A stretch of DNA of 40,105 nucleotides, from positions 1 to 40,105 of the forward strand of contig JAQUUD010000001.1 of NCBI GenBank assembly GCA_028694075.1, in the 5' to 3' direction. The position numbers and the translations under genes are program-made. Origin of the DNA: Clostridia bacterium (GTDB lineage Bacteria; Bacillota; Clostridia; Christensenellales; UBA1242). Of this stretch, positions 2,676 to 28,704 are shown one piece after another (the stretch's first letter is position 1; every line of letters starts with the position of its first letter). The notes below the pieces were generated by a model. That model did no database searches, was not told the DNA's origin, and worked only from the letters and a program-made list of their open reading frames with translations.

Positions 2676-2700
2676 GCACTTTTGTGCTTTGTTTTTTAGT

Positions 2701-3066
2701 TATCAGTTAGTCTGTAAGCCGAGTTCTGTATTAAATGGTCATCTATCTAGATGATATATCTCTATATCATTCAAGCGGTATTTTTGGATAACGCGAGAGA
2801 ACAAGCGCATATGTTATCACTTAACCTTGCTTCAAGTGGGGTTTACATGGCACATCTTGTTACCAAGATGTCGGTGGTCTCTTACACCGCCTTTTCACCA
2901 TCACCGCAATTTTAAAAATAAATTTAATTTCACGGCAGTATATTTCTGTTGCACTTTCCTTAGAGTTGCCTCCACCGGCAGTTAACCGGCACCCAGTTCT
3001 CTTAAAGCTCGGACTTTCCTCGGAACTGTCATTATAACAATCCCGCGACCATCTGGCTAGCTGACA
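2701..3066 (-). ncRNA. rnpB: RNase P RNA, bacterial class A
   Basis: The minus strand contains GAGGAAAGUCCGAGC (reverse complement of 3007..3021). It also contains GGAAAGUGCAACAGAAAUAUACUGCCG, GGUGUAAGAGACCACC, GUAAACCCCACUUGAAGCAAGG and ACAGAACUCGGCUUACAG. A P1-like pairing joins 3057..3066 and 2701..2710. The layout parallels E. coli M1 RNA. Confidence 0.93.
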
Positions 3067-3100: not shown

Positions 3101-3146
3101 GATTAAAATATTTCAAGAACAACTGTTTTAATTACAAGATTGTTAC

Positions 3147-3730
3147 CGCGGACCAGCCAAACGAACAAAGCGAGCGGGCGTTAGCAGAGCGAGCGGGCGT
3201 TAGCAGGGCGAGCGGTCAGTTCCAGCCAAACGGACAAAGCGAGCGGGCGTTAGCAGGGCGAGCGGGCAGTTCCAGCCAAACGGACAAAGCGAGCGGGCGT
3301 TAGCAGAGCAAGCGGGCGTTAGCAGAGCGAGCGGTCAGTTCCAGCCAAACGAACAAAGCGAGCGGGCGTTAGCAGGGCGAGCGGGCGTTAGCAGGGCGAG
3401 CGGGCGTTAGCAGGGCGAGCGGGCAGTTCCAGCCAAACGGACAAAGCGAGCGGGCGTTAGCAGGGCGAGCGGGCGTTAGCAAAGCAAGCGGACAAGTCAA
3501 CCAAACGGACAAAGCGAGCGGGCGTTAGCAGAGCAAGCGGGCGTTAGCAGGGCGAGCGGTCAGTTCCAGCCAAACGGACAAAGCGAGCGGGCGTTAGCAA
3601 AGCAAGCGGACAAGCCAACCAAACGGGCAAAGCGAGCGGGCGAAGCGAAGCAAGCAGGGCGAGCGTCAAGCCAGTCAAACGGACAGAGCGAGCGGACAAA
3701 TCAACAGTCAAACGGGCTGGTCAAACAGGC
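3147..3730. repeat. GC-rich hierarchical tandem-repeat array A
   Basis: About 9-10 super-units. Each has a 22-nt punctuation (cagttccagccaaacggacaaa), then 1-3 copies of the 19-nt unit gcgagcgggcgttagcagg, then a 9-nt partial unit. The + strand is G-rich and T-poor. The array degenerates toward its right end. Confidence 0.9.
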
Positions 3731-3732
3731 TT

Positions 3733-3776
3733 TAAAAAAAATTAATCAGGTTACTGGTTAAGCGGTAACCTGATTA
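3733..3776 (-). terminator. Rho-independent terminator of rnhA
   Basis: A 12-bp stem taatcaggttac/gtaacctgatta (3743..3754 with 3765..3776) is followed on the minus strand by a T8 run. Confidence 0.75.
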
Positions 3777-3873
3777 CTTGGTAAATAAATTTATTTGATT
3801 TTTAAAAATATTTTAGATTTGTTACGCATCTTAAAAATTCAACAATAAAATTTGAGCGGAGCGATAATAAAAC

Positions 3874-8620: not shown

Positions 8621-9709
8621 TTAAATAAACTCAAATTCTTTATCTGACGTTGTTGAATAAATTGTAATGCTTCCGTCATTATTTAAACATCTATTCAAGC
8701 CCATAAGTTTTCTTAAAGTTTTCATTGTGCTGTATGCGTGAATATCTTTATGTTCACCTTTTGCAAGAAAATACATATCAAGTTCTGTGTAAATATTTTC
8801 AACATCTAAAACCACAATAACCACTTTTTGTCCAGTTCTTGCAAGCACTGTTGCGTGATTTATTGCATTATTAACCGCTTCAAATGCATATAAAGGTTCA
8901 TTTTCAAAATAACTAACAAAATCTGTAAACTTTGTTATATATTTTTGAATTTTCAACAAACCGTCAGCTGGCACTCCAACTGCAACTATAAACAAAGAGT
9001 AGCCTTTTTTTACTAATTCATTTAACACATTTGCTTTTTTTTCAATAAATTCCATTCTGCTTGGGCTATAAATGTGTGTTTTTGAGCCTTCTTTAATATT
9101 ATCAACTATTTCAACATTGTCGTTTAATACGACATCTTTTATTGAGCAAAATTTTCGGAAACAATTTTCAAATTTTTTTCCGTTTAATTTTTCAATATCC
9201 CGTGCCATAAAATAATTTTTGCCTTTAACACCTGAAGCAATAACCGACAAATAATCTCCGGAAACTAAACCAAATTGTGCAACCAGCACATCAGGCACAT
9301 ATACCAAATCATCATCTGTTGTGCAAAAATAATAATCGTGATTGTGTTTTATGAGATAACCTTGCTTGTGTTCCATTACGCTATTAATTTCATTTTCTTC
9401 ATTTTGAGCAAACGGCAAGAACCTGTCAATTAAGATAGTATCCTTATTACGTTGTTCAGCAAAATCAAGAAGTTCCTTTGGTAATAAATCTTCCTGAAAT
9501 CCTCTTGCCATAAGTTTATTTTTAATCGGACGACCGGCTTTTTGTTTCACTGCCAATTTTTTTTCGCCTGACATAATTTGTATTATTTCATTTATCAACT
9601 TTTCTTTTTTCATAATTGTGGGAGAAGGCACGCCCCACATACGTGCGATGTTTCTCAGGTCGTGAACACCTAAATTTTCCAGTTGCAATTTTCTTTCTGC
9701 TAAATCCAT
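8621..9709 (-). CDS. Rho-derived protein: Rho_N domain, Rho-like RNA-binding OB fold and a degenerate RecA-like domain
   Basis: The N-terminus LENLGVHDLRNIARMWGV...KEKLINEIIQ resembles Rho_N. GYLIKHNHDYYF...LVYVPDVLVAQFGLVSGDYLSV parallels Rho GFGFLR...DIYVSPSQIRRFNLRTGD. The positions of Walker A (GSKTHIYSPSRMEFIE) and Walker B (VIVVLDVEN) lack GKT and the acidic catalytic context. Confidence 0.7.
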   Translation of the reverse strand: MDLAERKLQLENLGVHDLRNIARMWGVPSPTIMKKEKLINEIIQIMSGEKKLAVKQKAGRPIKNKLMARGFQEDLLPKELLDFAEQRNKDTILIDRFLPFAQNEENEINSVMEHKQGYLIKHNHDYYFCTTDDDLVYVPDVLVAQFGLVSGDYLSVIASGVKGKNYFMARDIEKLNGKKFENCFRKFCSIKDVVLNDNVEIVDNIKEGSKTHIYSPSRMEFIEKKANVLNELVKKGYSLFIVAVGVPADGLLKIQKYITKFTDFVSYFENEPLYAFEAVNNAINHATVLARTGQKVVIVVLDVENIYTELDMYFLAKGEHKDIHAYSTMKTLRKLMGLNRCLNNDGSITIYSTTSDKEFEFI

Positions 9710-9956: not shown

Positions 9957-10282
9957 TGGCGAAGTCAAACAAATCAAACGGACAAGTCGAACAAGTCAAA
10001 CGGACAAAGCGAGCGGGCGAAGCGGAGCGGAGCAGGGCGAGCGGGCGAAGCGGAGCGAGCGGGCGGAGCAGGGCGAGCGGGCGAAGCGGAGCGAGCGGGC
10101 GGAGCAGGGCGAGCGGGCGAAGCGGAGCGAGCGGGCAACAGTCAAACGGACAAGTCGAACTGGTCAAACGGACAAGTCGAACTGGTCGAACGGACAAGTC
10201 GAACTGGTCGAACGGACAAGTCGAACTGGTCGAACGGACAAAGCGAGCGGACAACAAGTCAAACGGACAAGTCAAACAAAAA
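9957..10282. repeat. GC-rich tandem-repeat array B (two sub-arrays)
   Basis: Sub-array 1 has 18-nt units gcgagcgggcgaagcgga and gcgagcgggcggagcagg alternating, giving a 36-nt super-period with about 3.5 copies (10009..10136). Sub-array 2 has the 22-nt unit ggacaagtcgaactggtcgaac in about 5 copies (10146..10240). The array is flanked by GTCAAAC(A/G) motifs. The + strand is nearly T-free. Confidence 0.9.
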
Positions 10283-10386
10283 GCGGGCAGGGAAGCAAAT
10301 TTTTGACCTTCAAGTCAAAAATTTTCAGCAAAACTGATTCAAGTTTTGCTGAACAAGCCTTTAAAGGCTTGTTCTTCCCTGCCCGC
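10283..10386. repeat. Nested perfect palindrome: 13-bp closing stem enclosing three hairpins, abutting array B
   Basis: Closing stem gcgggcagggaag (10283..10295) pairs with cttccctgcccgc (10374..10386). Arms are aaatttttgac-cttcaa-gtcaaaaattt, cagcaaaact-gattca-agttttgctg and aacaagcct-ttaa-aggcttgtt. On the minus strand it is followed by TTTTTGTTTG. Confidence 0.88.
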
Positions 10387-23758: not shown

Positions 23759-25114
23759 ATGATAAGATTTAATAAAGGAATGCAAAAACTTATTGCAAGC
23801 GGGCTGGTTATTATTTTTTGTTGTATAACTTTGTTTGCAGGAATACTTGCAATATTGAGTAATACTAAAATGGGGCTAAGCGTTAATGTGTCATTTGATT
23901 CAGCGGTAACCGCCAAGGTTTATCTTGCTACAAATAGTAATACTGATATAAATTTTAAGCAACCAAATGATTCTGTTACTGCTGAAAATTTTGCAAAACC
24001 AAATTCTGCCATAATTTTTAATACATATAACATTGACACAAATGGTGGAAAAACAAAAACTTCGTTTGAGCAGTTAGGCGCTAATGAAGACTTGGGCTTA
24101 AAATGCGATGCCAACGGCGAAATGGAATTTTATGTTTATGTGGAAAATTACAGCACCACGGAAATTATTTATTATCGGGCGAATATTGACTTTGTTGGCA
24201 CGGGCGAACAAAGTGCACCTTTTAGCACAGCAACCAATCCTTTCTACGAAACTGCCGATACTGCTGTGGAAGTGAACGACCCTTCAATAAGCCTGCTAAC
24301 ATTTAAAATCAGTTCGGATAATGCCACAGGTATAACTGCAAATGCAATCAGAATTGAAATTGATTTACAAACGGAATTACCTTGGGAGTGGTTAGGTGTA
24401 ACGGGCAAATATACTTCAGGCAGTTATAACGGGCTTTATTATGTCGATTTTGGCGAATATCCACAAAGTTTATATGGAACCACACAGCCAACTGGAACAA
24501 TTTATAATTCCACTTCAGGATATTATGAGAATCTTGAAACAGGTAAAAAATATGAATTATATAGTACTAAATACTATAATGTTGAACCTGTTAGATGGCT
24601 TGTTATTGGAAATGGTAATAATTATAATAATGCTAATTTAGGATTTCCAAATATAAATTCTGATAATCTGGCATCGAATCAACTGCTTTTGTTCAGTGAA
24701 AAAATTATTGCAGGCTCTACATATGGTAGTGGGGCTAATGTTTTATGGACGAATGTAAGTTTATATAGCACCTTATCTAATATGAAAGACAAAATGTTTA
24801 GTCCGGAAACAAATTTGGGAACATTCGATGATGGTTCACAATTATCCATTTTATCTTCCACCATGCTATCTTATAAATATTCTAATTATTATTCAGGAGC
24901 ATTAGCTTTAGCATTAACTTGCACTAAAACCAGCTGGGCAACTACAATTGGCTTTGATCTTGCAGAATATTATTGGCTTAGGCGAGTACAAACATCAGCT
25001 GTTTTTTCGGGTTATACTTATACAGATGGTGCAAGATATACTACCGGAGCCGTTAGTGAAATTCGCACCACTTATGTTGCAGGTATTCGCCCGATTATTA
25101 TTTTAAATGTTTAA
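23759..25114 (+). CDS. Secreted or anchored protein: conserved N-terminal beta-rich domain plus DUF6273-like C-terminal domain (paralogue 2)
   Basis: The start is taken at ATG 23759 (ggagtatttaATG). The ORF track begins at 23747, inside the RBS. It contains EPVRWLVIGN, NQLLLFSE, YYWLRR and AGIRPIIILNV. Confidence 0.8.
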   Translation: MIRFNKGMQKLIASGLVIIFCCITLFAGILAILSNTKMGLSVNVSFDSAVTAKVYLATNSNTDINFKQPNDSVTAENFAKPNSAIIFNTYNIDTNGGKTKTSFEQLGANEDLGLKCDANGEMEFYVYVENYSTTEIIYYRANIDFVGTGEQSAPFSTATNPFYETADTAVEVNDPSISLLTFKISSDNATGITANAIRIEIDLQTELPWEWLGVTGKYTSGSYNGLYYVDFGEYPQSLYGTTQPTGTIYNSTSGYYENLETGKKYELYSTKYYNVEPVRWLVIGNGNNYNNANLGFPNINSDNLASNQLLLFSEKIIAGSTYGSGANVLWTNVSLYSTLSNMKDKMFSPETNLGTFDDGSQLSILSSTMLSYKYSNYYSGALALALTCTKTSWATTIGFDLAEYYWLRRVQTSAVFSGYTYTDGARYTTGAVSEIRTTYVAGIRPIIILNV

Positions 25115-25304: not shown

Positions 25305-25345
25305 CAATAAAATAAGTTTCGACTAAGCCGAAACTTATTTTGTTA
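25305..25345. terminator. Bidirectional rho-independent terminator (hpf and the 23759 gene)
   Basis: A 13-bp stem aaaataagtttcg/cgaaacttatttt (25309..25321 with 25329..25341) has loop actaagc and T/A runs on both sides. Confidence 0.75.
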
Positions 25346-25378: not shown

Positions 25379-25909
25379 CTAAACATTACATTCAATAATG
25401 CCGAGGCGGTTGTCGTTGCGGTTATATAAGATGTTAACTTTGCCAGTTTCGACATTAAGGAACACATAAAAAGTATGCCCTACTGCTTCCATATAATCTT
25501 TTGCATCTTCAATTGTTATCGGATCCAAATTAAACACTTTCTTTTTTATTATTTCTTTGTTTATTTCTTCTGGCTTTTTATCCAGGAATAGCAAATCTGA
25601 ATAATCAATTGCAATATTTCTGAACTTATCACGCTTTTTCTCAAATTCCTTAATTACTTGTCTTTCAATTTTCGGCAAAGCAAAATCAATATTTTCATAC
25701 ATATTTTCGCCTACAACTTCCGCCCTATAAAGCAAACCTTTATTTGTTACAGTAACTTCAAGTTTGTTTGTTTTATTTTCCTGTTTGCAAACAACTCGTG
25801 CAATTCCATCTTTTCCAAAATATCTGTCCAATTTGGATATTTTCTTATTAATAATATCCCTTAATTTATCACTTATTTCATAATTTTTTTCTGTTAATTC
25901 TATTTTCAT
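25379..25909 (-). CDS. hpf: Ribosome hibernation promoting factor, long form
   Basis: N-terminal S30AE domain (MKIELTEKNYEISDKLRDIINKKISKLDRYF) and C-terminal dimerisation domain (PITIEDAKDYMEAVGHTFYVFLNVETGKVNILYNRNDNRLGII). Confidence 0.92.
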   Translation of the reverse strand: MKIELTEKNYEISDKLRDIINKKISKLDRYFGKDGIARVVCKQENKTNKLEVTVTNKGLLYRAEVVGENMYENIDFALPKIERQVIKEFEKKRDKFRNIAIDYSDLLFLDKKPEEINKEIIKKKVFNLDPITIEDAKDYMEAVGHTFYVFLNVETGKVNILYNRNDNRLGIIECNV

Positions 25910-25958
25910 TTTTATCTCCTATTTTTTATTTGTTTTTTTATTTATTATTTTAATTTAA

Positions 25959-26216
25959 GGTCTAACGGGCAAATCAAACGGGTCAAACGGACCGAGCGAG
26001 CGGGCGAGCCAGAGTCTAACGGGCAATTCAAACGGGTCAAACGGACCGAGCGAGCGGGCGAGCCAGAGTCTAACGGGCAATTCAAACGGGTCTAACGGAC
26101 CGAGCGAGCGGGCGAGCCAGAGTCTAACGGGCAATTCAAACGGGTCTAACGGACCGAGCGAGCGGGCGAGCCAGAGTCTAACGGGCAATTCAAACGGGTC
26201 TAACGGACAAATCAAA
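25959..26216. repeat. GC-rich tandem-repeat array C (54-nt period, about 4.5 copies)
   Basis: The unit gtctaacgggcaattcaaacgggtc(t/a)aacggaccgagcgagcgggcgagccaga has ACCGAG phase markers at 25991, 26045, 26099 and 26153. It shares the GCGAGCGGGCG and CAAACGGG/TAACGGAC motifs with arrays A and B. Confidence 0.9.
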
Positions 26217-26242
26217 TGAATGAATTGTTATTTATTTTCACT

Positions 26243-28684
26243 TTATTTTATTTCGCTTTCAAAAATCAGTTTTTCATTTTGGCTATCTATAATCACAATT
26301 CCTGATTTTTTTAACTCGCCTATCAAGATTTTTTCTGCAATTGTATCTTCAATTTCTTGTTGAATAAATCTTTTTAGCGGTCTTGCACCAAACTCCGGAT
26401 TTTTACAACCATTTTTTACTACTAAATTAAGTGCTTCTTCGGTTATTTTAAGTTCCAAGTCTTGCTTTCTCAATCGGATATTGATATTATTAATTAATAT
26501 TTTTGCAATTTTGGTAAGTTCGTCAGGTCCAAGCGGTTTGAACACGCAAATCACATCAATGCGGTTAATAAATTCCGGTTTAAACTTTTTCTTTAACGCA
26601 TCAAAATAAATCTGTTTAGACTTTTCAAAATCATCATCGAAACTGTTTTCATTAAACCCAAGTTCTTTATTTTTAACTAATGTTGCACCGATATTACTTG
26701 TCATAATTATTATTGAGTTGCGAAAACTTACAACTCTGCCTTGGCTGTCGGTCAATCTTCCATCATCTAAGATTTGAAGCAGTGAATTGAAAATTTCGGG
26801 GTGTGCCTTTTCAATTTCATCAAACAAGACAACTGAATATGGCTTGCGTCTAATCTGTTCGGTTAGTTGACCGCCTTCTTCATATCCCACATATCCAGGC
26901 GGTGCACCGATAAGTTTTGCAACCGAATGCCCTTCGGTATATTCGCTCATATCTAACCGAATTATATTATTTTCATCATCAAACATTGCTTCAGCAATTG
27001 CTTTTGAAAGTTCAGTTTTTCCGACACCAGTTTGCCCCATAAACAAGAATGAACCGATTGGTTTTTTGATATCTTGCAAGCCAACTCGAGATCTTCTTAT
27101 TGCCCTTGCAACTGCGTCAACTGCTTCTTCCTGCCCAATAACTCGCTTATGAATGATTTCTTCCAAATGCATAAGTTTTTCTTTTTCGCTTTCGGTTATT
27201 TTCGTAACCGGAATGCCTGTCCATTTTGAAACAACTTCGGCAATTTCATTCGCACCGATTGAGCCTGTTGATTTTTTCGTTTTCTTATTAAATTCGGCAG
27301 TTAAAACATCAAGTTCGTTTTCAAGATTTATAATTTGAGATTGCAATTTTGCTGCTTTTTCATAATTTCTTTGAATGCTTGCCTCATCTCTATTAGCAGA
27401 AAGTTGCTTGATTTTTTCTTCCTTATCCCGTATTGCAACTGGCTTTAAGTTAAAATTTACTTTTGCCTTACTGCTTGCTTCATCAATCAAATCTATTGCT
27501 TTATCCGGCAAATACCTGTCCATAATATATCTGTCAGAAAGTTGCGCCGCCGCCTCTATTGCTTCGTTTGAAATTTTGATTTTATGAAATGCTTCATAAC
27601 TATCTTTTAAACCTTTTAATATTTCCATTGTCTCTTCTACTGTTGGTGGATTTACAAAAATTGGTTGAAATCTGCGTTCTAAAGCCTTGTCTTTTTCAAT
27701 AAACTTTCGATATTCATCAGTTGTTGTTGCTCCGATTGTTTGAAGTTCGCCTCTTGCGAGATACGGCTTCAACATATCAGCGGGGCTTGTTTCGCCCTTT
27801 TCAGAGCCTGCCTGAGCAAGCGTATGAATTTCATCAATGAAAACAATGATATTTTTTTGTGCAATTATTGTTTCAATTGCGTTTTTAAGGCGTTCTTCCA
27901 TACTTCCACGATATTTTGTGCCCGCCATAAGCCCGCCGATTTCAAGAGAAAAAATGATTTTGTCCGTAAGTATCTCTGGTACATTGCCACTTACGATTGC
28001 GAGTGCCAGTCCTTCAACAACCGCTGTTTTTCCAACACCCGCTTCACCAATTAAAACCGGATTGTTTTTTGTTTTACGGCAAAGAATTTCAATTATTCTT
28101 TCAATTTCTCCTTCTCTGCCAATGACGGGGTCGATTTTGCCTTCTTTGGCTTTTAAAGTTATATCAGTTCCCATTGAAAGCAATTTTTCCGGCAAACCGC
28201 TTTTTGAATTTAATGTAGGGTTTTCTTCGCCAATTTCCTTCCTTTCGCCTTGCAAAATAATTAATATTTTTGTTTTTAAATCATTTATATTGATGTGAAA
28301 ATAACTGATTAAAAGCCTGACTGCAAAACTGTTAACACTGTTTAAAAGAGCATAAAAAATGTGTTCTGTTCCAATAAAAGAATGTCCAAGTTGCATTGCA
28401 ATTTTCTGTGCAATTCTTATCATTTCTTTAACACGGGGAGTTAATTCAACCTGCTCGCCTATTACTTCAATAAAATCAGAGTTGTCGCCAAAAATCGCTT
28501 CCAGACTTTCGGTTGTGACATTATATTCGAATAAAATTTGACAAGACGCACAATCTTCAACACAAGTCAGACCATACAAAATATGTTCAGTTCCGACCTG
28601 CAAATTGCCAAACTTTACAGCCACATCACTTGCTTTTTTTAATACTTTTTCAACATTATCAGAAAAAGAATTAAGATTGCTCAT
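26243..28684 (-). CDS. clpC: ATP-dependent Clp protease ATP-binding subunit ClpC
   Basis: Clp_N repeats, two AAA+ modules (GEAGVGKT and GQTGVGKT) and a UVR-like linker. The start was trimmed to ATG 28684 (gaaaggagaacttATG). Confidence 0.93.
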   Translation of the reverse strand: MSNLNSFSDNVEKVLKKASDVAVKFGNLQVGTEHILYGLTCVEDCASCQILFEYNVTTESLEAIFGDNSDFIEVIGEQVELTPRVKEMIRIAQKIAMQLGHSFIGTEHIFYALLNSVNSFAVRLLISYFHININDLKTKILIILQGERKEIGEENPTLNSKSGLPEKLLSMGTDITLKAKEGKIDPVIGREGEIERIIEILCRKTKNNPVLIGEAGVGKTAVVEGLALAIVSGNVPEILTDKIIFSLEIGGLMAGTKYRGSMEERLKNAIETIIAQKNIIVFIDEIHTLAQAGSEKGETSPADMLKPYLARGELQTIGATTTDEYRKFIEKDKALERRFQPIFVNPPTVEETMEILKGLKDSYEAFHKIKISNEAIEAAAQLSDRYIMDRYLPDKAIDLIDEASSKAKVNFNLKPVAIRDKEEKIKQLSANRDEASIQRNYEKAAKLQSQIINLENELDVLTAEFNKKTKKSTGSIGANEIAEVVSKWTGIPVTKITESEKEKLMHLEEIIHKRVIGQEEAVDAVARAIRRSRVGLQDIKKPIGSFLFMGQTGVGKTELSKAIAEAMFDDENNIIRLDMSEYTEGHSVAKLIGAPPGYVGYEEGGQLTEQIRRKPYSVVLFDEIEKAHPEIFNSLLQILDDGRLTDSQGRVVSFRNSIIIMTSNIGATLVKNKELGFNENSFDDDFEKSKQIYFDALKKKFKPEFINRIDVICVFKPLGPDELTKIAKILINNINIRLRKQDLELKITEEALNLVVKNGCKNPEFGARPLKRFIQQEIEDTIAEKILIGELKKSGIVIIDSQNEKLIFESEIK

Positions 28685-28704
28685 AAGTTCTCCTTTCATT
28701 TAGT

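Follow-up and report, generated by a model that had tools for sequence, protein, structure and literature searches.

We found that the GC-rich tandem repeat between clpC and hpf, referred to here as Array C, belongs to a lineage-specific family of minisatellites. The family is unusual and undescribed, but within it Array C is ordinary. The reading that we consider likely is that Array C is a tolerated non-coding minisatellite of a GC-rich, strand-asymmetric family present only in this lineage, and that it was amplified locally, is likely transcribed, and has no dedicated regulatory role. We analyzed the whole 40,105-nt stretch of DNA that contains the array (the window). It is contig C40 of an assembly (G000) of 1.11 Mb in 84 contigs that is 30.8% GC and 90% complete.

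Tandem Repeats Finder detected 4.6 copies of a 54-nt higher-order unit, GTCTAACGGGCAATTCAAACGGGTCWAACGGACCGAGCGAGCGGGCGAGCCAGA, at positions 25960-26208 (period 54, 98% matches, indels 0, score 477). This agrees with an earlier note on this DNA that described about 4.5 near-identical copies. When the copies (n = 5) were aligned in register, they differed at two positions of the unit, 14 (A/T) and 26 (A/T). The variants are in neighboring copies, the pattern expected of recent local duplication. There are three AACGG cores in each 54-nt unit, and all 14 cores in the array are in the plus orientation. The earlier note had listed three (C/T)AACGG(G/A)C motifs per unit; the three cores are present, but two of them fit that motif only loosely (AAACGGGT and (A/T)AACGGAC). 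The sequence GCGAGCGGGCG is found 4 times in Array C and 28 times in the whole window (with at most one mismatch), compared to 0.08 expected from shuffled sequences. The array is confirmed as real and far beyond chance. We considered and rejected a CRISPR array, because the units of Array C abut without unique spacers.

The edge and the unit junctions are also informative. Positions 26209-26226 contain a decayed edge unit, AAATCAAATGAATGAATT, that is an AT-shifted remnant of a AAATCAAACGGG... block, and this edge is conserved in a sister strain (L006). The k-mers that span the junctions between units (GAGCCAGAGTC, GGCAATTCAAACGGGTC, and others) are absent elsewhere in the genome. Since these k-mers are unique to this locus, it appears that the 54-nt unit was amplified in place.

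The two strands of Array C are very different from each other. The G/A-rich strand is the plus strand, and the C/U-rich strand is the minus strand, the sense strand of both clpC and hpf. RNA from the minus strand would be 34.1% C, 29.3% U, 25.7% G, and 10.8% A, which bears out the previous description of it as rich in C, U, and G and poor in A. The C content of the genome is 15.6%, compared to 34% in this RNA, and there are ~22 YC dinucleotides per 100 nt. Folded as RNA, neither strand was as stable as its dinucleotide shuffles (z = +1.3 and +3.0); that is, Array C is unstructured on either strand. In a search of the whole window with Rfam at gathering thresholds, only RNase P RNA and tRNA-Trp were matched and neither array strand was, and a known structured RNA was rejected for lack of an Rfam match. 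Looking in the sequence for G-quadruplexes, i-motifs, and triplexes, we found GGG/CCC runs 11-25 nt apart and no long pure purine mirror repeats.

A rut site, at which Rho loads, is a C-rich, G-poor, unstructured stretch of RNA of ~80 nt or more. Array C could be such a site in the sense RNA, ending clpC transcripts or attenuating read-through into hpf. The RNA has 34% C versus 26% G, has the YC content given above, and is unstructured, and for 23 of 28 arrays of this family the C-rich strand is the sense strand of the upstream gene. However, 26% G is high for a rut site, and canonical Rho is absent from the assembly and from the whole genus (the assembly is 90% complete, so the absence is not absolute). 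Rho proteins scoring >500 bits are present in other families of the order. We consider Rho loading highly improbable.

The only match to Rho models was a 362-aa protein encoded at 8621-9709 (minus strand), with 28-35 bits versus cut-offs of 315-509. It has a Rho_N-like N-terminus, matches the Rho models at positions 5-127 only, and has no recognizable Walker A motif. This protein is conserved in the genus, and its gene is directly beside another array in the window (Array B, described below). It may be a relic of Rho that has no ATPase.

The genes that flank Array C are those named previously. The upstream gene is clpC (26243-28699, minus strand), encoding an 818-aa ClpC-type AAA+ protein with the Pfam domains Clp_N, AAA, AAA_lid_9, AAA_2, and ClpB_D2-small. 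The downstream gene is hpf (25379-25909, minus strand), encoding a 176-aa long-form ribosome hibernation factor with the domains Ribosomal_S30AE and Ribosom_S30AE_C. The Shine-Dalgarno sequence of hpf is AGGAGA (25920-25915). In a consensus scan of the window, the only terminator-like hairpin in this region was 3' of hpf (25309-25341, minus strand; a 15-bp stem followed by a T-rich tail) and there was none between clpC and hpf, consistent with the earlier failure to identify a terminator after clpC. Similarly, none of the four relatives scanned (L006, L007, L010, and L011) has a terminator-like hairpin between these genes.

Because there is no terminator upstream of hpf, and dozens of relatives have clpC and hpf as neighbors in the same orientation, Array C is most likely transcribed. 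Spacers of ~50 nt between clpC and hpf in many relatives also suggest that the two genes are co-transcribed. There is a promoter-like site on the minus strand, TTGAAA-17-GAAAAT, that overlaps the stop codon of clpC on the upstream side of the array (26234-26262; a consensus match only), and the sister strain L006 has TTGAAA-17-TAAAAT at this position. If this candidate promoter at the 3' end of clpC is used, then Array C would be in the hpf leader. Based on these sequence features, Array C is probably carried in clpC-hpf intercistronic RNA or in the leader of hpf.

It is also conceivable that Array C is a portable part of a promoter, in which TTGACC, TTGCCC, or TTGAAT on the sense strand would provide a -35 box to the AT-rich DNA before hpf. 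In favor of this, BrickBuilt minisatellites of P. gingivalis contain promoter elements (PMC4596501). In Array C, a minus-strand match that is by consensus only, TTGCCC-17-AATAAT (25944-25972), spans the edge of the array, with its -35 hexamer coming from the last repeat unit, and a second match, TTGACC-16-TAGACT, is within the array. Both matches are weak (9/12), however, and the number of promoter-like matches in the region (5) is close to that expected from shuffled sequences (5.3). In addition, the sister strain L006 has no equivalent match at the edge of its array, and relatives that have no array have better promoter-like sites close to hpf. We think that a promoter role is very unlikely.

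Array C is non-coding. There is an open reading frame of 86 codons in the array (25955-26215, minus strand), with a TTG start and a periodic product, (PFELPVRLWLARSLGPLD)n. This frame is open, is in the sense orientation, and is between two genes, as might be expected if it encoded a real repeat peptide. It begins 28 nt past the clpC stop codon and ends 46 nt short of the hpf ATG. Against a real peptide, the TTG is not preceded by a Shine-Dalgarno sequence, there is no Pfam match, and a search of 5.8 billion (5.8e9) proteins gave no homologue at E<=0.01. One antisense frame across the array is as open as the sense frame, and both are open because the 54-nt unit is free of stop codons and is exactly 18 codons long. 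In the sister strain L006 (95-99% identical), every sense frame across the array is interrupted. In most of the long arrays of the family, either all six frames contain stop codons or the period is not divisible by three. The earlier judgment that this open reading frame is an artefact is upheld, and Array C almost certainly does not encode a repeat peptide. Public annotations of a related species call an 81-aa "protein" in the decayed clpC-hpf array (L008, 2738-2983; L009, 701-946). These calls are probably artefacts of a similar kind. Neither the 86-aa open reading frame nor similar ones in related contigs, including the 81-aa calls, should be kept as proteins in annotation.

Array C belongs to a family that is spread throughout the genome. 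We scanned the assembly for the core ARCGGRC, which includes AACGGRC and the AGCGGGC inside GCGAGCGGGCG, and found 44 clusters of cores in 36 loci. Together these make up ~9.6 kb, or 0.9% of the assembly. Many arrays are at contig ends; that is, the arrays break the assembly, which explains why it is in 84 contigs. Within each array, the cores share one orientation (for example, 30:0, 29:0, and 14:0). The arrays are modular: blocks of ~11-22 nt containing GTCWAACGGRC and blocks of ~18-19 nt (AAAGCGAGCGGGCG..) are combined into higher-order units that are specific to each locus, and the 54-mer of Array C is one such combination. Spacings of 13 nt and 18-22 nt between cores are recurrent. GTCWAACGGRC is almost confined to arrays: 159 of its 169 copies are in or beside them, the remaining 10 are in small arrays that were missed by the cluster threshold, and there are none in open reading frames.

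Two other arrays in the window are of the same family and in the same orientation as Array C. Array A (3153-3731; periods of 19, 50, 69, and 88, which are not multiples of three) is next to the gene for RNase P RNA, and Array B is at 9962-10287 (periods of 18/36 and 22). The RNase P RNA gene (2699-3064, minus strand; 257.9 bits) is ~90 nt from Array A. On the opposite side of Array A there is a terminator-like hairpin (~3745-3780), and arrays also abut terminator-like hairpins at four other places in the assembly (the end of C28, C58b, C33, and C59).

The neighbors of the arrays are varied. They include genes for WhiA, DNA polymerase III alpha, an S1-domain protein, RsgA, Fmt, a MiaB-like enzyme, HslU, EF-P, a DnaI-like loader, RarA, GAPDH, and RNase P RNA. 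The earlier note had associated the cores with stress and stationary-phase genes. This association is not supported: the ~36 arrays adjoin varied housekeeping genes, and dozens of relatives have clpC-hpf without an array. We also rejected the notion of a transcription-factor regulon, since there are no solitary core sites near promoters.

We looked for features that might indicate how the arrays spread. In an all-against-all BLAST of the array flanks, there was no shared leader, tail, or terminal inverted repeat. Mobilization by a RAYT was rejected because Y1_Tnp (PF01797) is absent from the assembly. An origin from a retroelement was also rejected: the single gene for reverse transcriptase is DGR-like and has no cores nearby. 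This gene encodes 353 aa (G000 C35:152-1299; L096) and has an RT-18 RNA motif from Rfam upstream (49.5 bits). At the start of the L096 contig there is a stretch that resembles a DGR template or variable repeat. No array-like sequence was found in viral contigs, phage records, or plasmids.

Six arrays do have a common flank, of 240-470 nt with 75-96% identity (C58:28757-29906 (L089), C13:2501, C8:4367, C72:23649, C38:8749, and C82:4654 of G000); all other arrays have no common flank. The flank consists of an AT-rich promoter region and the 5' end of genes for a paralogous family of secreted-looking proteins that have no Pfam match and have the N-terminus MFMLNKRVQKLIAKGIALIITLTV.... In addition, a ~55-nt module, CCGAGCACAGTGTTGCTTTAGCTTTGCGTTAGCAAAAATGGAGCGACGCGTGCGG, recurs in or beside arrays (G000 C59:~520-580, C71:~23940-24000, and C82:~1620-1680), and a diverged copy of this module is in the decayed clpC-hpf array of a relative with 88% identity (L007, ~3140-3195).

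The family is lineage-specific and is found in a lineage of AT-rich gut Clostridia. There are 71 copies of GCGAGCGGGCG in the assembly and none in seven species of the same genus. GTCWAACGGRC, with 169 copies in the assembly, is also absent from those seven species, and it is present in at most six copies per species across 400 species of the same family.

We compared the clpC-hpf site in relatives that were found by way of Hpf and that are uncultured Clostridia or Christensenella-like MAGs. Dozens of relatives share the gene order of clpC and then hpf, most of them with a short, AT-rich spacer. In L010 and L016 (Hpf 83% identical) the spacer is 53 nt and 15% GC; in L011-14 (Hpf 78% identical) it is 191 nt and 14% GC; and in ~45 further, more distant species representatives it is 48-200 nt with a GC fraction of 0.12-0.33. 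There are no cores in any of these spacers. Three sets of sequences have an array. In one (L005; Hpf 100% identical), the contig ends 44 nt into the array. In L007-9 (Hpf 88% identical), the spacer is 463 nt and 37% GC and contains a decayed array with scattered, recognizable cores (GCCCGTTTGAC, GCCCGTAGAC, and GCCCATTGAC). The third, L006/L015, is a strain of the same species from a JGI metagenome. It has kept the insertion site of the array, with near-identical flanks, and its first and last array units are near-identical to those in the window. The interior of its array has been rebuilt and consists of ~165 nt of other blocks of the family, Array A-like and without a 54-nt period. The earlier note had proposed a comparison of copy number across strains. 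The length and interior of the array do differ between strains, but variation in the copy number of the 54-mer itself was not seen in this one same-species comparison of a whole spacer.

These results indicate that the interior of Array C turns over far faster than its flanks and that the array erodes over time. Based on the array-free spacers, the rebuilt interior in L006, and the decay in L007-9, we infer that a recent ancestor acquired the array in what had been a short, AT-rich spacer. Array C is not flanked by a direct repeat, and sequence divergence at the empty site in L010 prevents a firm call of a target-site duplication. Array C is dispensable for clpC and hpf. We also noticed a shift in identity across the array in the comparison to L006 (25379-27685 of the window): the 3' end of clpC is 98.7% identical, hpf is 93% identical, and the downstream sequence is 95.7% identical. 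Array C may mark a recombination breakpoint.

The arrays have a marked bias in orientation. The G/A-rich strand runs counter to the local GC skew at 27 of the 36 loci (p = 0.004). Leaving out two duplicate contig ends and six arrays of one paralogous gene family gives 28 independent loci, and among these the count is 24 of 28 (p = 2e-4), or 21 of 23 where |skew|>=0.05. With respect to genes, the C-rich strand is the sense strand of 23 of 28 upstream genes and of 12 of 18 downstream genes. The exceptions either violate the rules for replication and transcription alike or come from a single paralogous gene family whose arrays travel with it. The six arrays with a common flank are most of the exceptions to the GC-skew rule. 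Elsewhere in the genome, G-rich words favor the skew-positive strand (60-73% of occurrences), so the orientation of the arrays is contrary to the strand skew of the genome. Directions of replication and transcription are confounded in this fragmented assembly. The bias is best read as a constraint and not as a sign of a dedicated regulatory role. The constraint could be selection against G-rich sequence on the non-template or exposed strand, or it could reflect a strand-specific origin.

The array cores contain AGCGG and GAAGCGG, which we take to be the Chi sequences of B. subtilis and S. aureus, respectively. We rejected the notion that the arrays are clusters of Chi-like (AddAB) sites. Outside of arrays, the strand skew of AGCGG is 0.60, compared to 0.59-0.73 for words of the same composition, which gives no support. 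GAAGCGG outside of arrays is skewed 81:27 (0.75), and the comparison to words of the same composition was made for AGCGG only. Furthermore, the orientation of the arrays is the reverse of that of G-rich words in general.

The orientation bias could also mean that the arrays have been selected as strand-specific cis elements, in which ARCGGRC sites in iteron-like rows are bound by a lineage-specific DNA-binding protein or by a protein that binds C-rich RNA. Such elements would act in nucleoid organization, as barriers to replication or transcription, or in the fate of mRNA. Array C would then modulate expression of hpf. This is possible but unlikely. Every array is in a single orientation with recurrent spacing of cores (13 and 18-22 nt), orientation is significantly biased relative to both GC skew and the upstream gene, the 11-mer GTCWAACGGRC is almost confined to arrays and is never in open reading frames, and two related lineages have kept the array site between clpC and hpf. 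On the other hand, the interior of the array is rebuilt between strains and is decayed in a related species, and there is no array in the clpC-hpf spacer of ~50 relatives, including species of the same genus. The genes next to arrays are functionally heterogeneous, promoters lack the nearby single-copy sites expected of a regulon, and we identified no candidate binding protein.

A broader version, which we regard as doubtful and quite unlikely, is that the arrays are not junk but an undescribed type of orientation-dependent chromosomal element, made of GC-rich, unstructured rows of direct repeats, in a lineage of gut Clostridia with reduced genomes. A strand-specific process coupled to replication or transcription that spreads or maintains the arrays, or a lineage-specific factor that reads them, would keep the C-rich strand as the sense or leading strand, and Array C would tune the amount of hpf expression that comes from clpC read-through.

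We favor the notion that Array C is a tolerated minisatellite, and its history was probably as follows. An ancestor of the species would have gained a seed made of ~11-nt and ~19-nt blocks of the family in the short, AT-rich spacer between clpC and hpf. One 54-nt combination of blocks would then have expanded at this site through replication slippage or unequal recombination, reaching 4.6 near-identical copies. The edges of the array would decay towards AT while the interior turns over faster than the flanks, and material was probably exchanged among arrays by gene conversion. The resulting RNA would be an unstructured, C/U-rich, A-poor part of clpC-hpf intercistronic RNA or of the hpf leader that encodes nothing and is presumably close to neutral. 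The orientation would be kept, with the C-rich strand on the sense or leading side, by constraint. Two observations do not fit easily with this notion. The same cores have spread to ~36 sites without a transposase-type partner, terminal inverted repeats, or a shared leader or tail. In addition, the orientation bias, the building of arrays in one orientation, and the spacing of 13 or 18-22 nt would also fit an array of selected, strand-specific binding sites.

About 1% of a reduced genome of 1.1 Mb is given over to a repeat family that is found in no sampled sister species. The family is a compact, natural case of how minisatellites become seeded at many sites in a bacterial genome, and its orientation bias is testable for replication, transcription (avoidance of R-loops), or function as the cause. 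The arrays should be good markers for typing strains of this uncultured lineage. Because it is inside the conserved clpC-hpf unit, Array C is also a convenient test case for the effect of a 250-nt C/U-rich insertion on expression of an operon.

Several known families of repeats resemble the arrays. REP/BIME sequences are abundant intergenic repeats, often within operons, with a bias in orientation, and REPs are palindromic hairpins mobilized by a Y1 transposase (RAYT). The arrays are like REP/BIME in intergenic abundance, operon setting, and orientation bias. Unlike REP/BIME, they have no hairpin, and there is no Y1_Tnp gene in the assembly. Membership in that group was rejected because folding is weaker than that of shuffled sequences (z = +1.3/+3.0) and PF01797 is absent.

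MIRUs of Mycobacterium tuberculosis are tandem units of 40-100 bp at 40-50 intergenic loci (PMC3184786, PMC3635867). They are often within operons and are thought to be polycistronically transcribed, there are empty sites in related species, and copy number changes rapidly (PMC3184786, PMC3635867). The arrays are similar in having tandem units at dozens of intergenic loci, in their operon setting, and in the empty sites in relatives. In contrast to Array C, whose open reading frame overlaps neither neighbor, MIRUs carry small open reading frames with ends that overlap the flanking genes. MIRUs also have imperfect inverted repeats, whereas neither strand of Array C folds, and there is no sequence relation between the two. 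Unlike MIRUs, the arrays stand out as GC-rich islands against a genome of 31% GC, have higher-order units specific to each locus, and are strongly strand-asymmetric. Membership among the MIRUs was rejected because there is no sequence homology and no open reading frame that overlaps a gene, and because the family is confined to one lineage of Clostridia.

BrickBuilt repeats of Porphyromonas gingivalis consist of ~23-nt bricks without spacers at ~19 loci, are always intergenic, are restricted to that species, and vary in length between strains (PMC4596501). Both BrickBuilt and the arrays are intergenic tandem repeats at multiple loci that are restricted to a species or lineage. BrickBuilt has leader and tail subunits with inverted-repeat ends, whereas the arrays have neither. 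Membership among MITEs was rejected because the array flanks have no common leader or tail and no terminal inverted repeats. The GC clusters of yeast mitochondria are short, GC-rich sequences dispersed between the genes of a genome that is otherwise very AT-rich. They are often transcribed, differ greatly from strain to strain, merge and shuffle, and are hotspots of recombination (PMC8811140). GC clusters are palindromic and have target-site duplications, whereas the arrays consist of direct repeats and are less self-complementary than shuffled sequence.

Array C has the properties of a minisatellite, or VNTR: its 54-nt units are head to tail without unique spacers, its family is dispersed at 36 loci, and it differs between strains (L006). 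It is a member of none of the families above and has no homology to the MIRUs, BrickBuilt, or the GC clusters of yeast mitochondria, but it works like these three.
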